From: Thermoanaerobaculia bacterium
GTDB taxonomy: Bacteria; Acidobacteriota; Thermoanaerobaculia; Multivoradales; UBA5704
Length of the DNA stretch: 64,000 bases
Direction of reading: 5' to 3'
Assembly: GCA_036399915.1 (NCBI GenBank)
Contig: DASWME010000013.1
Location: forward strand, 1,724-65,723
A program made the position numbers and the translations under genes. The notes beneath the pieces were generated by a model, which was not told where the DNA came from, made no database searches, and saw nothing but the letters and a program-made list of their open reading frames with translations. Of the stretch, positions 21,426 through 52,333 are shown piece by piece (positions within the stretch are counted from its first letter, which is position 1; each line of letters opens with the position of its first letter).

Positions 21426-21447
21426 GCGGCCTTTGGCATGCGTGGCC

Positions 21448-21676
21448 TGACCTGCAGGGCAAGCCGCGTGCCCTTCAGGTCAAAGAGCCTGCCCTTCGGG
21501 TCAAGCGGCGTGCCCTTCAGGTCAAGGCCCTGACCTGCAGGTCAAGCCGCCTGCCCTTCAGGTCAAAGGGCCTGCCCTTCAGGTCAAGCGGCGCGCCCTT
21601 CAGGTCACGCCCATGACCTGCGGGTCAAGCCGCGTGACCTTCAGGTCAAAAGGCCTGACCTTCAGGTCAAGAGGCC
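21448..21676. repeat. Tandem array of 11 units (21 bp; units 4 and 8 are 20 bp) with TG(A/C)CC-N4-GGTCA core
   Basis: Units read directly, e.g. TGACCTGCAGGTCAAGCCGCC; 83-bp higher-order period. Confidence 0.95.
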
Positions 21677-21810
21677 TAGGGTCTGAAGAAGATTTGAGCC
21701 TGCCAGGGCCTGCAATGGCTCTTTGCGGAGAAGGATGGGCATTCCCCTTTCTCTATTCACAATGCACCCCTCTCTGGCTATACTTTCGGGCCAGATCGGC
21801 AGCGCTTGCG

Positions 21811-41698: not shown

Positions 41699-43270
<1,572 letters not shown>

Positions 43271-43275
43271 AGCGT

Positions 43276-43830
43276 CCGCCGGCGCAACGACAAGGCCTGC
43301 CCGCGCAGTCGGTGGATCCGCCGGCGCGGCGAGGACGTCCGCCGGCGCCGCGACACCTCCCGCCTGCAGCTCGACGAGGCCCGCCCGCGTAGCTGGTTCA
43401 TCCGCCTGCGCAGTTGGTCGAACCGCCCGCGTCTCGACAAATCCCGCCTGCAGCTCGACAAGGCCCGCCGGCGCGGCGAGAGCGTCCGCCCGCGTCTCGA
43501 CAAGGCCCGCCTGCCTGGCCGGTTGATCCGCCCGCAGCTCGACGAGGCCCGCCTGCGCAGTTGGTTGACCCGCCGCTGCAGGCGGGAGGACAAATTGCTC
43601 AGGCGGTAGGCCCGCCTGCTCAGGCGGCTGAGCAAATGACCCAGGCGGAAGGCCCGCTTGCCCAGGCGGGAGGACAAATTACTCAGGCGGCTGAGCAAGT
43701 TACGCAGGCGGGAGGACAAACTGCGCAGGCGGGAGAACAAATTGCGCCGGCGGTTGGCCAAATTCCTCGGGCGGACGAGCCAGCTGCGCAGGCGGGAGAA
43801 GAAATTGCGCCGGCGGTAGGCCCGCCGGCG
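43276..43830. repeat. Bipartite 21-bp array: 15 CCGCCNG-core units then 12 inverted CNGGCGG-core units
   Basis: Cores fall exactly every 21 nt (43276...43570; 43579...43810); the two cores are reverse complements. Confidence 0.92.
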
Positions 43831-43881
43831 CCGGCACGAGAAAGGAATGACAAGCGCGCCTTCGAAGGCCTGGCCCCCGGC

Positions 43882-44991
43882 TCAGGCGAAAGGCACCGGG
43901 CTCACGCGGACGCCCTGCAGCCGGAACGCCCGCCGCAGTTCCGGGGCCAGGAAGCTCCACTGACGGCGGTCCAGCCGCCCGGCCGCGGCGTCCTCCGCAT
44001 AGATCGCCAACGCGCCCAGCGCCAGGTCGAGGCCCGGCCGGCCCGCGAAGCGCGTGGCCAACTCCTCCACAGGGGCGCTCAACTCCCCGCCTCTCCCCAG
44101 CTCCCTCAGCACGAGCCCCAGATCGATCGTCGCCAGAGTGGTTTCGGGAAGCAGGCGCCGCGCGATCAGCTTGCGCCGCACCGCCTCCAGCAGGGGCTCG
44201 GCCGCCGCGACCTCGCCCGCGCCTGCAGCCACCCGGCCCTCCATCCAATACAGGGCGAACAGCGCCTTCTCATGGCGCACCCCTCCGTAGAGCCTCCAAG
44301 CGCTCTCGCGGGCCTGCCTCGCCTTCGCGGCCTCGCCGGCTGCCGCGAAGCAGAGCGCCAGGCCCAGGCCGCTGCGCACGGCCAGCCAGGCCTCCCCCGC
44401 GCGCTCCAGCGCCCGCCAGGCCCGCCGCAGCAGCGGCGCCGCCCACCCCGTCTCGCCCTCCTCCACATACAGCAGGCCGAGCAGCGCCCGGCACGCCTCC
44501 TCCTCCTTGCCATTCTGCGCCTGGCCAAAGAGCTGCAAGCCGTGGTGCAGCAGCGCGGCGGCTTCCGCGGTGCGCCCCTGGTCCCAGCGCAGCAGGCCCA
44601 GGGCGCGGCAGAACCGCCCGCGGCCCGCGGCTTCGAGCGTAAGGTACTGCGCCCGCTCCAGAAGGGCTTCCGCGGTTTCGACGTGGCCCATCAGCCGGCG
44701 CGCCGTGGCCGTCAGGCACAAAGCGCGCGCCAGGCCCTCGCTCTTGGCCGCGGGCGCGAGCCTGCCGCGTGTGCCCAGCCGCACGCAGAGCTCCGCCCCC
44801 AGGGTCGCCAGCTCGTTGGCCCGCCGCGGCGCGAACGGCAGCGCGGCCTGCGCTTCCTCCAGCACCAGCTCGTAGAGCTCCAGGCTGTGAAAGCGCTCCT
44901 CCTTTACGCGCTCCATCCGCTCCTCCCCGGCACCCGCCATGAGCTCGCCGAGCAGGCGCACCGTCTGTGGCTTCGATTTGGGAGGGCTCAT
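43882..44991 (-). CDS. TPR-like protein without HTH (related to 20262-21425)
   Basis: LTATARRLMG, LGLLRWDQG, LYWMEGRVAA, LATIDLGL; ATGA-coupled to the upstream gene. Confidence 0.8.
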   Translation of the reverse strand: MSPPKSKPQTVRLLGELMAGAGEERMERVKEERFHSLELYELVLEEAQAALPFAPRRANELATLGAELCVRLGTRGRLAPAAKSEGLARALCLTATARRLMGHVETAEALLERAQYLTLEAAGRGRFCRALGLLRWDQGRTAEAAALLHHGLQLFGQAQNGKEEEACRALLGLLYVEEGETGWAAPLLRRAWRALERAGEAWLAVRSGLGLALCFAAAGEAAKARQARESAWRLYGGVRHEKALFALYWMEGRVAAGAGEVAAAEPLLEAVRRKLIARRLLPETTLATIDLGLVLRELGRGGELSAPVEELATRFAGRPGLDLALGALAIYAEDAAAGRLDRRQWSFLAPELRRAFRLQGVRVSPVPFA

Positions 44992-49051: not shown

Positions 49052-50977
49052 ACCGGGGTTGCACCGGCCGTTGACACCACCTACATCTACGACGACCCCG
49101 CGGTGCCGTTGTCCAAAGGCCGCCTGACGAAGATCGCCAGAAGCGGCTCCGAGGTCGCCTACGCCTACGACCGCTTCGGAAGGGTCACCCAGGATGGCGA
49201 GCTGACCTATCGATACGACCAGAACGGCAACCGCGCCGAGATCGGCTATCCTGGAGGGGTGACCGCGCGCTTGACGCACAACTTCGCCGACCGGGACGCC
49301 TCGCTGGAGGTGCAGGCGGGGAGCGCGGCCCCGCAGGCGATCGTTTCCGGCGCCCGCTACAAGCCCTTCGGCCCGCTCGCCGGCTTCACCTTCGGTAACG
49401 GCCTGGCCGAGATCCGGAGCTTCGATCCGCGCTACTTCCCCAGCCGCATCGAAGTGCCGGGGCGGTTGGACCAGCTCTACTCGACCGACAGGGTCGGCAA
49501 CGTTCTCAGCCTCAACCGGGCGGTGGGAGCGGACCGCTTCTTCTCGACCTTTGTCTATCAAGATCCACAGTACTTCTTGACCGAAGGCAACGGCCCCTGG
49601 GGACGGCGGGCCTGGAGCTACGACCGCATCGGCAACCGACTGAGCGAGATCCCCCCGGTCGACCTCGATCCGCCGGTGGAGATCTTCACCTACTCCTACC
49701 CCTCCAACCAGGCGGGCGGCCATAACCCCAAGCTGTCACGTATTGAACCGGCGCCGGGAGGAGAGCCGGGGAGCCATTTAGATTACGGCTACGATGCGTC
49801 CGGCAACGAGACCACGGTAGCCGCAGTCACCGGCGAAGAATCGGGCCGGACGAGCTTCCTTACGTACAGCGCCGAGAGCCGCCTCTCCCGGCTCTCGACG
49901 AGCGATGGGACGGCTTCGACCGAGCTGCTCTACGATGGCCGCGGGTTCCTGCGGCGCTCCCGGCTGACCTTCTCGAACTCCACTGACTTCGAGCAAACCG
50001 AGCCCACCTACAGCTCTGAAGGGCTGCTGTTAGCTCGCAAGATCCACCAGCAGAACACCCGCGGCGGGCGAGGAGATACGGGAGCCCCACCCTCGAGCCG
50101 AGTCGTCATGGAGACGGCCTACCTCTTCTACTTCGCGGGCCGGCCGGTGGCGCAGTTGACGCGACCGCAGGCGGGAGGGGGAGCGGATACGCTCCTCTAC
50201 CTCACGACCGATCATTTAGGCACGCCTATCCAGGCCACGGACGTGGCGGGCATGCTCGTGTGGGAGGGAGGACTCGATCCGTTCGGCACGCCGTTCGTTT
50301 TCCCTGCCCCCCGGCCTCCAGGGGAGGGTGAAGACCCGCAGGAGCCGCCCGAAGGTGAAGATCAGAGCGCCGCAGCCACGGCAACGATGGAGAGCGCAGG
50401 GATTTTCCTACGCTTCCCCGGCCAGTGGGATGACTCGAGTTTCCGCTCGCATGGTTTGCGGGGAGGGTTGTATTACAACGTGCACCGTTACTACGACGTG
50501 AGCACAGGCCGGTACACGAGGCCGGATCCGATTGGGCTGGCCGGCGGCGAAAACCTATATGTGTACGTCGGCGGAAACCCGATCACGTCCGTAGATCCAA
50601 CGGGCTTAATCGACGAGACTCGCTTCCCCACGCCCGACGAGATCGCCGAACTAACGCAGCGTCACTGTGCTCGCCAGGCCATTCTGCGGAACTACGGCGA
50701 CATGCGAGAGGCAAACTGGAGGCGCTCTGACAAGTACTTCCACTGCAAAGCAACCTGCGAGGCAGCAAGGTGTGGCACATTCGGCTTCAAGGAGGCTTGT
50801 GGGCTCGGCGACTTGCGCGAGTTCTTCGACCGACTGTTGGGAGATCCGATCAGCGCCTCGCAGGCGGATCAAGCGGCTAACCGTTTTGGCCGTGAGGAAG
50901 CGGGCAGGAAACCGAACTTGACTTGCCAGATTATCTGTTCGCAATATCGGCCGGCAGGCTTGCCGGAGAGGTACTGA
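49052..50977 (+). CDS. N-terminally truncated (orphan) RHS/YD-repeat protein with serum amyloid A-like C-terminal tip
   Basis: YD repeats (YAYDRFGR, YRYDQNGNR, WSYDRIGNR), DHLGTP, LRFPGQ, YYNVHRYYD, PDPIG...NP...DPTG core end; first possible start GTG 49103. Confidence 0.9.
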   Translation, partial: TGVAPAVDTTYIYDDPAVPLSKGRLTKIARSGSEVAYAYDRFGRVTQDGELTYRYDQNGNRAEIGYPGGVTARLTHNFADRDASLEVQAGSAAPQAIVSGARYKPFGPLAGFTFGNGLAEIRSFDPRYFPSRIEVPGRLDQLYSTDRVGNVLSLNRAVGADRFFSTFVYQDPQYFLTEGNGPWGRRAWSYDRIGNRLSEIPPVDLDPPVEIFTYSYPSNQAGGHNPKLSRIEPAPGGEPGSHLDYGYDASGNETTVAAVTGEESGRTSFLTYSAESRLSRLSTSDGTASTELLYDGRGFLRRSRLTFSNSTDFEQTEPTYSSEGLLLARKIHQQNTRGGRGDTGAPPSSRVVMETAYLFYFAGRPVAQLTRPQAGGGADTLLYLTTDHLGTPIQATDVAGMLVWEGGLDPFGTPFVFPAPRPPGEGEDPQEPPEGEDQSAAATATMESAGIFLRFPGQWDDSSFRSHGLRGGLYYNVHRYYDVSTGRYTRPDPIGLAGGENLYVYVGGNPITSVDPTGLIDETRFPTPDEIAELTQRHCARQAILRNYGDMREANWRRSDKYFHCKATCEAARCGTFGFKEACGLGDLREFFDRLLGDPISASQADQAANRFGREEAGRKPNLTCQIICSQYRPAGLPERY

Positions 50978-51420: not shown

Positions 51421-51786
51421 CTAGCCGCGCCGCCCGGTCTTCTTCGGCTGCTGCTTCAGGGCGGCGCGGATCCTCTCGTCGATGACATGGGCGACATAGT
51501 CGTCGAGGCTGCGCCAGTCCGGCTCCTGGGTTCGGGCAGGGCCGGCGCCGTCCTGGCCCGATCTGTCCTCGAAGAAGTAGGTGAGGGGCACGCCGAGCTG
51601 CTCGGCCAGCCGGCAGAGCAGGTTCACCGACAGGCGCTTGCCGCCCTTGCGGCGGAACAGGTCGCTGACCTGGCCGGGCGTATACCCCTGAGCTTCCTCA
51701 AAGGGCCTCACCCCGCCGCGCTCGCGGAGGAGACCCTTCAGCCGGTCGAGGGTCCTCTGCTCCGCGGGATGCCGGGGGACGGCCAT
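51421..51786 (-). CDS. XRE-like HTH regulator (cI-like position)
   Basis: FEEAQGYTPGQVSDLFRR...LSVNLLCRLAEQLGVPLTYFF. Confidence 0.75.
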   Translation of the reverse strand: MAVPRHPAEQRTLDRLKGLLRERGGVRPFEEAQGYTPGQVSDLFRRKGGKRLSVNLLCRLAEQLGVPLTYFFEDRSGQDGAGPARTQEPDWRSLDDYVAHVIDERIRAALKQQPKKTGRRG

Positions 51787-51819
51787 TTCAAAAAAAGGAT
51801 CGCCTGAACCGGCTCGCGG

Positions 51820-51888
51820 TGTCAAGCGAGAGAGATGGCGGCATTTCCGAAACAATCCATTGACAGTTCGGAAGGGTGGTCATAGTCT
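51820..51888. promoter_or_regulatory. Back-to-back sigma70 promoters with operator-like inverted repeat
   Basis: TTGACA on - (51825-51820) and on + (51860-51865); + -10 TAGTCT at 17-nt spacing; TTCCGAA-N15-TTCGGAA. Confidence 0.7.
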
Positions 51889-51894
51889 TCGTCC

Positions 51895-52185
51895 ATGCAA
51901 CCAAACCATCCGCGTCGCGTTCGCAAGGGCGCCCGGCTGAAGGCTGGCCGGGCCGTGGCGAGCAGCCCGATCCAGGCCCGCCGCCTCGAGCTCAATCTCA
52001 CGCAGGACGATGTCGGCCAGATGGTAGGGGTGACGGGCCGGCACATCGCGAACATCGAAGCCGGCCGGGTCGCTCAGCCTCCGGAGTGGCTGTTCCTGCT
52101 GGCCGATGCGCTGAAGGTGGATCCGATGGTGCTGTTCCAGTGGTTCAAGGCGGCGCAGCGGAGCCTCGCCGGGGTGCGGACGTGA
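51895..52185 (+). CDS. XRE-family HTH regulator (cro-like position, probably leaderless)
   Basis: IQARRLELNLTQDDVGQMVGVTGRHIANIEAGR; ATG 6 nt after the -10 box. Confidence 0.85.
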   Translation: MQPNHPRRVRKGARLKAGRAVASSPIQARRLELNLTQDDVGQMVGVTGRHIANIEAGRVAQPPEWLFLLADALKVDPMVLFQWFKAAQRSLAGVRT

Positions 52186-52210: not shown

Positions 52211-52333
52211 GGCCCGACCGCGGCCGCCTGCGCCAGGCCGCGGAGATCCCGGACGATCTGGGGCTCAGCCCGACGTTCGTGCCGTTCCTGACGATCGAGG
52301 CGTACGGGTACCTGGATTAGAATGTCCGCCGGC
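52211..52333 (+). repeat. Right copy (attR-like): orphan 3' end of malate synthase
   Basis: Encodes [34 protein letters not shown] vs ace[35 protein letters not shown]. Confidence 0.9.

Follow-up and report, generated by a model that had tools for sequence, protein, structure and literature searches.

The feature described here lies in a 64,000-nt stretch of DNA (hereafter the window), which belongs to contig C13 of the 6.37-Mb assembly of a Thermoanaerobaculia MAG, a soil acidobacterium, with 68.8% G+C. A 21-bp repeat array occupies the whole gap between aceB and a convergent gene encoding a 369-aa protein, here called the regulator gene. The features at this locus and at the far end of the adjoining insert are as follows.

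41699-43270, plus strand: aceB, malate synthase A, 523 aa (Pfam MS_TIM-barrel 1.7e-106, MS_C, MS_N)
43163-43283, plus strand: left copy of a 121-nt direct repeat, comprising the aceB 3' end, its TAG and the first CCGCC core
43268-43577, plus strand: A half, 15 units of 21 nt in one orientation, core (C)CCGCCnGCG at unit positions 9-17
43570-43585, no strand: central dyad CCGCC-GCTGCA-GGCGG, the point at which the polarity switches
43578-43834, plus strand: B' half, 12 units CGGnnGnnCAAATTnCnCAGG (reverse complement CCGCCTGCGCAATTTGTCC) with GGCGG cores
43797-43831, minus strand: terminator-like hairpin, a 10-bp G+C stem (GCGCCGGCGG/CCGCCGGCGC) followed by the T-rich AATTTCTTCT
43882-44991, minus strand: regulator gene, 369 aa, no Pfam match, TGA at 43882-43884
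52213-52333, plus strand: right copy of the 121-nt direct repeat, 84% identical to the left one and consisting of a detached fragment of the aceB 3' end

The TAG stop codon of aceB (43268-43270) forms the opening triplet of repeat unit 1. Fourteen exact CCGCC cores start at 43276, 43318 and 43339 and from there every 21 nt up to 43570. The remaining one of the 15 A-half units reads CTGCC at the in-phase position 43297. GGCGG starts at 43581 and recurs every 21 nt until 43812, which gives 12 units, likewise in phase with one another. When 43268-43860 is cut into 21-mers, CCGCC occupies unit positions 9-13 and GGCGG straddles the unit boundary, so that the phase of the GGCGG cores of the B' half is shifted by 11 nt from that of the CCGCC cores. 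The B' half also carries an A-tract (AAATT) whose place in the unit is constant, a complete CCGCC-N6-GGCGG site (43612-43627), and extra CCGCC cores at 43612 and 43822 which keep the A-half phase within the second half. Its outermost units make up the terminator-like hairpin, which lies on the same strand as the regulator gene, and the same hairpin letters occur in the copies on contigs C19 and C385. TRF reported periods of 21, 42, 63 and 84 over 43288-43826. An earlier reading made from the letters alone (hereafter the sequence-only reading) had described two opposed arrays in exact 21-nt phase, and this description holds for 43268-43834 with 15 CCGCC-type units, one of them CTGCC, and 12 GGCGG units.

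Blastn located this bipartite element of ~550 bp at exactly ten loci genome-wide (contigs C13, C18, C19, C148, C153, C176, C320, C366, C380 and C385). The best pairwise alignments between copies reach 70-82% identity, the order of unit subtypes is kept across copies, and the gaps of the ten-way alignment are all multiples of 21, i.e. whole-unit indels. Within each copy the cores of either type share one phase (127 of 132 CCGCC and 117 of 121 GGCGG cores), and the offset between the two types is +11 in ten out of ten. No phase slip was found among these 244 cores, despite 18-30% divergence between copies. As the centre-to-centre distances between cores equal 11 + 21n, the cores of both arms come to lie on one side of a 10.5-bp helix. 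The central dyad is present in all ten copies with its loop letters kept in most, and each copy holds one to four full CCGCC-N6-GGCGG sites, central dyad included. Unit logos showed a contiguous, nearly invariant core and variable, arm-specific flanking positions. A pattern of four cores at 21-nt spacing matched 36 times in the host genome; the same pattern reversed, which served as control, gave no match there and two across 41 genomes. Unit positions 3, 6, 9, 12, 15 and 21 are G or C in all ten copies, a period-3 pattern without coding constraint.

The proteins encoded beside the ten copies are mutually unrelated and include malate synthase, a glycosyltransferase-like, an AsmA-like and a permease protein, among others. 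The proposed link of the array to a TPR/peptide cassette fails, as the intact regulator gene adjoins just two of the ten copies (C13 and C19). Searching with the 369-aa protein, tblastn returned two close copies, one remnant and eight distant paralogues, and no element copy was seen beside any of the eight paralogue loci. Nor was the suspicion of random VNTRs borne out, the arrays being homologous dispersed copies. It is well supported that the feature is a dispersed, phase-locked, non-coding repeat element which is not tied to aceB and the regulator gene.

Similar bipartite arrays had been suggested as a search target in related MAGs. None of the family studied here was found by BLAST in 92 genomes of the same family or by pattern search in 401 genomes of the class. 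The closest relatives of aceB come from Thermoanaerobaculia MAGs, and in the closest of them, L001, no array follows aceB. The slot after the AsmA-like gene, where the C366 copy resides, contains a different repeat block in one congener and none in another (L140). In the former, L139 (G009:C12:1059100-1061300), ~20-nt direct and inverted repeats (CCGCTCGAAGACGCTCC / GGAAAAAACACTCTCCGAG) lie at about 200-510, directly after the AsmA-like stop. One JGI metagenome, Ga0134122, contained three contigs with ~14-unit arrays (CCGTCCGCCTGGGTAATTTGG and variants) that have period 21, GGCGG at +11 and five full CCGCC-N6-GGCGG sites each; their non-core letters differ.

Arrays with a period of 21 are common in the host. 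TRF over the whole genome yielded 224 merged arrays with period 21 or its multiples (21, 42, 63, 84). They represent numerous unit families unrelated to one another, in most of which the unit consists of a palindrome of 14-16 bp and a spacer. In the window itself, 21444-21677 harbours a 21-bp array of ~11 units from a different family, built of TGACCT-TC-AGGTCA palindromes and containing a 1-nt phase slip. Head-to-head 21-nt arrays of other families were observed at C344:12111-12378, C379:14450-14619, C380:3175-3385 and C254:59258-59519; these have unequal arms, with e.g. ACGGTCCGCCCCGAGGTCTGG switching to its own reverse complement.

The copies of the studied family recombine, and on being copied to new sites they have taken along 20-130 nt of adjoining gene tails. 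Outer parts of each half cluster along with their flanks: in the outer A half C148 groups with C385 (87%) and C153 with C366 (88%), and in the outer B half C13, C19 and C385 form one group (94-97%). Between copies, the inner parts (64-93% alike over pairs; 80-93% for the inner B part) vary less than the outer ones. The C385 copy combines an A flank from one group with a B flank from another, and the copies are thus mosaics. With X, Y and Z as working gene labels, the flank combinations X+Y, X+big gene, Z+big gene and aceB+Y were seen, and remnants of the tails of aceB, X, Z and Y adjoin other copies. Alongside the C19 copy lie 22 nt of the aceB tail, alongside C385 and C18 the last codons of the C148 gene, alongside C153 the tail of the C366 gene, and alongside C385 also the final 27 codons of the regulator gene; beside C380 a shorter look-alike of the regulator-gene tail was recognised by eye only. 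A sharp leader edge, GGTGAAGAGTTTCGGCTGA, recurs in three copies, each in its own context; the C148 gene takes its final codons and its stop from it. The elements hence reshuffle gene 3' ends and flanks.

In outline, the element repeats an oriented core of 8-9 nt, (C)CCGCCnGC(G), in one direction every 21 bp, that is every two helical turns. At the CCGCC-N6-GGCGG dyad the polarity flips; beyond it the cores point the other way and are offset by 11 nt, which places the cores of both arms on one face of the double helix. We propose that the element is recognised at the level of DNA: this same-face row of half-sites and full sites would be read by a DNA-binding protein, sequence-specific and probably a dimer, and core and phasing would be kept because of it. 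The element may persist as a semi-selfish repeat that is harmless directly after stop codons, and its outermost B units would happen to provide the regulator gene with a hairpin terminator. We infer the DNA-level reading of the core because it is oriented, nearly invariant, on one helix face and free of slips in 244 instances, because half of the element is incapable of forming unit hairpins, because another metagenome has arrays of the same grammar with different non-core letters, and because AAATT holds its phase despite a genomic G+C content of 69%; the function of the element is putative. A protein-binding array was one of three options raised by the sequence-only reading, and it is the most plausible of them given the exact two-turn spacing in all ten copies, the single helix face shared by both arms and the recurrence of the grammar in another organism, although no binder was found. 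Taken together, we give about even odds (roughly 0.5) to the interpretation that the array is one copy of a ~550-bp non-coding repeat whose cores lie on one side of the helix and are read by a putative DNA-binding protein. Several points stand against it. No candidate gene for a binding protein was identified and no constant neighbour gene accompanies the ten copies. Since the 21-bp period is common to many unit sequences that have no relation to each other, a separate binder for each family is unlikely, and a generic mechanism may set the period. The exact phase could partly stem from unit-wise slippage and gene conversion instead of selection. As the family is missing from the 92 and 401 genomes searched, any function is dispensable. 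Moreover, the model does not explain why conservation is higher at every third unit position than at the two positions in between.

Other explanations have to be weighed against a bound protein. According to the sequence-only reading, each half has an Arg-rich heptad frame that continues in frame from the stop of the gene next to it, the aceB TAG or the TGA of the regulator gene. This is correct for both stops, and the two frames are poor in stop codons; read-through into Arg-rich tails had been considered on this basis. Translation, be it of such tails or of separate small heptad-repeat proteins (RLxNLxS, with leucines at a/d spacing), would also agree with the phase of genes whose end meets the edge of an element (five of seven independent, well-supported cases in phase, p about 0.045), with third positions in G or C as in the genes of the host genome, and with the mycobacterial MIRU, which insert in such a way that an ORF within them becomes coupled to the adjacent gene (PMC12548453). 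Part of the in-phase bias, however, arises in one group because the sharp edge GGTGAAGAGTTTCGGCTGA itself supplies the stop of the C148 gene. Nei-Gojobori estimates, computed for six frames, gave a pN/pS of 1.4-1.9 in the two stop-poor Arg-rich frames, and among aligned paralogous copies third unit positions were the least variable in the A half (0.19 vs 0.31 and 0.36) as well as in the B' half (0.11 vs 0.18 and 0.21), a combination opposite to that of a conserved protein. The variable core letter interchanges L, P and R; C148, C385, C153 and C366 have a second in-frame stop within a few codons, and several copies contain internal stops. In the window, the A-half frame lacks a start codon until an in-frame TTG near its end. 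A tRNA scan of the genome detected no tRNA-CUA that could act as suppressor. The 164-aa ORF on the minus strand was searched against 5.8 billion protein clusters, where none of 5584 candidate proteins sharing short words reached E <= 0.001, and it had no Pfam match. Unit logos, positional diversity, pN/pS, stop counts, protein search, Pfam and tRNA scan all led us to reject a coding role, and translation in either form is highly improbable. Two tempting stories are thereby removed, namely programmed Arg-rich read-through tails and, with the cassette link, a device of the peptide/TPR cassette.

An action at the RNA level is a live rival, even though we regard it as rather unlikely. The element would then be a 3'-UTR element like REP/BIME, serving as a two-way terminator or insulator through hairpins or a Rho-loading tract and protecting the upstream mRNA. 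E. coli REPs provide a precedent: in 3'UTRs they have a double role as terminators and stabilisers, and their presence between convergent genes correlates with higher expression of the two genes (bioRxiv 10.64898/2026.03.23.713779). Consistent with this, several copies begin at or a few nt from stop codons, each half is richer in C than in G along the direction of the incoming gene, the minus strand forms a 10-bp G+C hairpin with T-rich tail at 43831-43797, and folding was stronger than in shuffles for the whole element (z -3.8) and for the minus strand of the B half (z -2.2). RNA of the A half, however, is less structured than its shuffles (z +1.4), and since the units are not palindromes, hairpin-based explanations fail for half of the element. 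The edge hairpin is limited to the copies sharing the regulator-gene flank. At 1.24-1.5 the C/G ratio stays within the genome's 95th-99th percentile and G makes up ~30%, which is unlike a classic rut tract; the skew is too weak for a call. About 7 of the 20 element sides meet a gene pointing away. The long RNA duplexes or alternative hairpins between converging transcripts that the sequence-only reading had envisaged are weakly supported at best, as the arms are complementary at 5-7 of 21 positions. Outside the core, complementarity of the arms amounts to 31% within a copy and 32% between copies, which indicates that the arms do not co-evolve. From this pairing at the core only and from the folding of the separate halves, we rejected a selected giant hairpin. 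A search of Rfam 15 returned two matches only, both at chance level (E about 0.9). Among sequencing runs no RNA run was found, and the one DNA run, that of the source soil metagenome, contributed nothing further.

The position of the array at the edge of an insert raises the question of an integration site. About 9 kb is inserted at the 3' end of aceB, as the 121-nt duplication of this end indicates, and the array is the first item inside the left junction. In agreement with the sequence-only reading, the first core (43276-43280) is included in this direct repeat (43163-43283 vs 52213-52333, 84% identical). The array might accordingly be an arm-type binding region (attP arm) of the ~9-kb island or a site at which a recombinase swaps flanks. 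It begins exactly at the end of the aceB duplication, which takes in one core, and the flanks of the family do come in combinations. The detached right copy retains relative-like sequence: it keeps GAGGCGTACGGGTAC (E-A-Y-G-Y), as does the closest relative L001, and the functional aceB has E-A-Y-R-Y. This right copy is followed by one solitary GTCCGCCGGC core and, in contrast to the left end, by no array. No integrase or recombinase was recognised in the ORF listing or on reading 50.8-52.4 kb, and Pfam searches with seven ORFs between 38.4 and 47.3 kb gave malate synthase and TPR matches only. Most of the other copies show no sign of an island, and ordinary homologous exchange between 550-bp repeats explains the mosaicism equally well. 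We thus consider a role in integration or flank exchange improbable. An empty site was not obtained: probing with the gene downstream of the island, the aceB 3'-end motif was present in none of five congener regions, and in congener G004 aceB does not adjoin that gene. The insert contains the TPR/peptide cassette, an RHS-type toxin C-terminal gene (49103-50977, named by eye from its sequence) and two small HTH-like genes (51421-51855 and 51895-52185). The other live rival needs no reader at all. As a selfish or neutral minisatellite, the element would owe its phase to whole-unit slippage, unequal exchange and gene conversion among the ten copies, and its head-to-head layout to a template switch at a palindrome. 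Indels that are all whole units, inner parts more alike over copies than outer parts, the absence of the family from congeners, the very unequal arms of other head-to-head arrays, and an orthologous AsmA-like slot that differs between congeners are all compatible with such an origin. It is, however, difficult to reconcile with 244 cores free of slips in copies this divergent, when the 82 other period-20-22 TRF rows of the genome have a median of 2% indels and just 35% of them are indel-free. It also leaves open why core and +11 offset are conserved in another organism with different non-core letters, and why AAATT keeps one unit position at this G+C content. A neutral origin is possible, although in our view unlikely.

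We did not find strictly two-turn-phased arrays with opposed polarity and a fixed +11 offset in the searchable literature; the repeat class is not described there, and none of its nearest analogues has this architecture. Arrays bound by small dimeric proteins include parC/ParR of R1, the omega heptads of pSM19035, sopC/SopB of F and plasmid iterons. Such centromere- or operator-type arrays consist of short sites, direct and inverted, which are phased by whole helical turns and include palindromic sites among half-sites. The element resembles them in its whole-turn phasing, with period 21 and the +11 offset in all copies. In contrast to them it is chromosomal and occurs in ten unrelated intergenic places without cognate, replication or partition genes nearby; as the flanking genes are unrelated and include no adjacent Rep, ParR/ParB or omega gene, the element does not qualify as an iteron or par centromere. 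Nor does it qualify as an attP arm, with no recombinase recognised in the parts of the island that were read and no array at its right end, or as a member of the Rfam families, given the two matches mentioned above.

Among dispersed repeats, BrickBuilt, a minisatellite-bearing MITE of Porphyromonas gingivalis, comes close (PMC4596501). Both elements are species-restricted, always intergenic and multi-copy (19 copies there, 10 here), and both have a body of spacer-less tandem units of ~21-23 nt with leader or tail pieces, here the edge GGTGAAGAGTTTCGGCTGA. Unlike BrickBuilt, the element described here reverses polarity at a dyad and keeps a phase of exactly two helical turns. It shares with MITEs the multi-copy, intergenic, non-coding nature and the restricted host range, but terminal inverted repeats outside the arrays were absent (A-side leader against reverse-complemented B-side flank 16, shuffles 15.5 +/- 2.3), no target-site duplication was seen at the sharp edge, and the edges differ between copy groups. 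REP/BIME and REPINs with RAYT (PMC2817692, PMC3116915, PMC3733652) are similar in being G+C-rich, extragenic, regularly spaced and of alternating orientation, often placed after stop codons and between convergent genes, and the genome studied here also has Y1-transposase-like genes. However, REP units are imperfect palindromes of 20-40 nt, whereas the A-half units here have a CCGCC without partner and fold at z +1.4, and where REPs number in the hundreds, as lone or paired hairpins, the genome here has 10 copies, each a composite of 27 units. The genome has ten Y1_Tnp matches, six of them strong, yet none lies within 2.5 kb of any copy, where a cognate RAYT flanked by the same repeats would be expected, and a GTAG/CGTC tag is absent from the unit logos. 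MIRU of mycobacteria (PMC12548453) are intergenic tandem repeats at gene boundaries as well, with an internal frame in the neighbour's phase. Their units measure 40-100 bp and are found at start codons inside operons, in contrast to the 21-bp units here, whose frame is without coding constraint and which abut stop codons. The GGGNATC heptamer repeats of Xanthomonas and Nostoc (PMC4692102) are also abundant, dispersed, non-coding and enriched near stop codons, but they are 7-nt G-tract units forming quadruplexes, and the 21-nt units follow no G-tract rule.

Beyond the family itself, the element might act in cis within a chromosomal system of Thermoanaerobaculia that has yet to be described. A protein or enzyme acting in trans would recognise CCGCC-N6-GGCGG sites and half-sites, lay them down or maintain them at a two-turn ruler, build same-face rows of ~270 bp per arm and copy these rows beside stop codons. 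We regard this wider proposal as doubtful; if true, the 21-bp rule of more than 200 unrelated arrays would reflect one molecular ruler and not chance. The conserved oriented core and the strict phase point to DNA-level recognition, and the family is a good test case for the class of two-turn-phased arrays.

Two genomic neighbourhoods of these arrays contain further features. At C204:629-973 and C204:1552-1875, a gene for a Y1 transposase (RAYT-like) lies ~580 bp from a 15-unit 21-bp array of another family (GGCGCCGGCGACACCGTCGCC). In the B-side flank of two copies of the studied family (C148:6377-6440 and C153:26841-26900), a sigma-70-like promoter (TTGACG, 18 nt, TACGAT) begins ~10 nt past the last B' unit, and its predicted target is a large secreted or lipoprotein-like gene with the signal peptide MALRIGPLRF...
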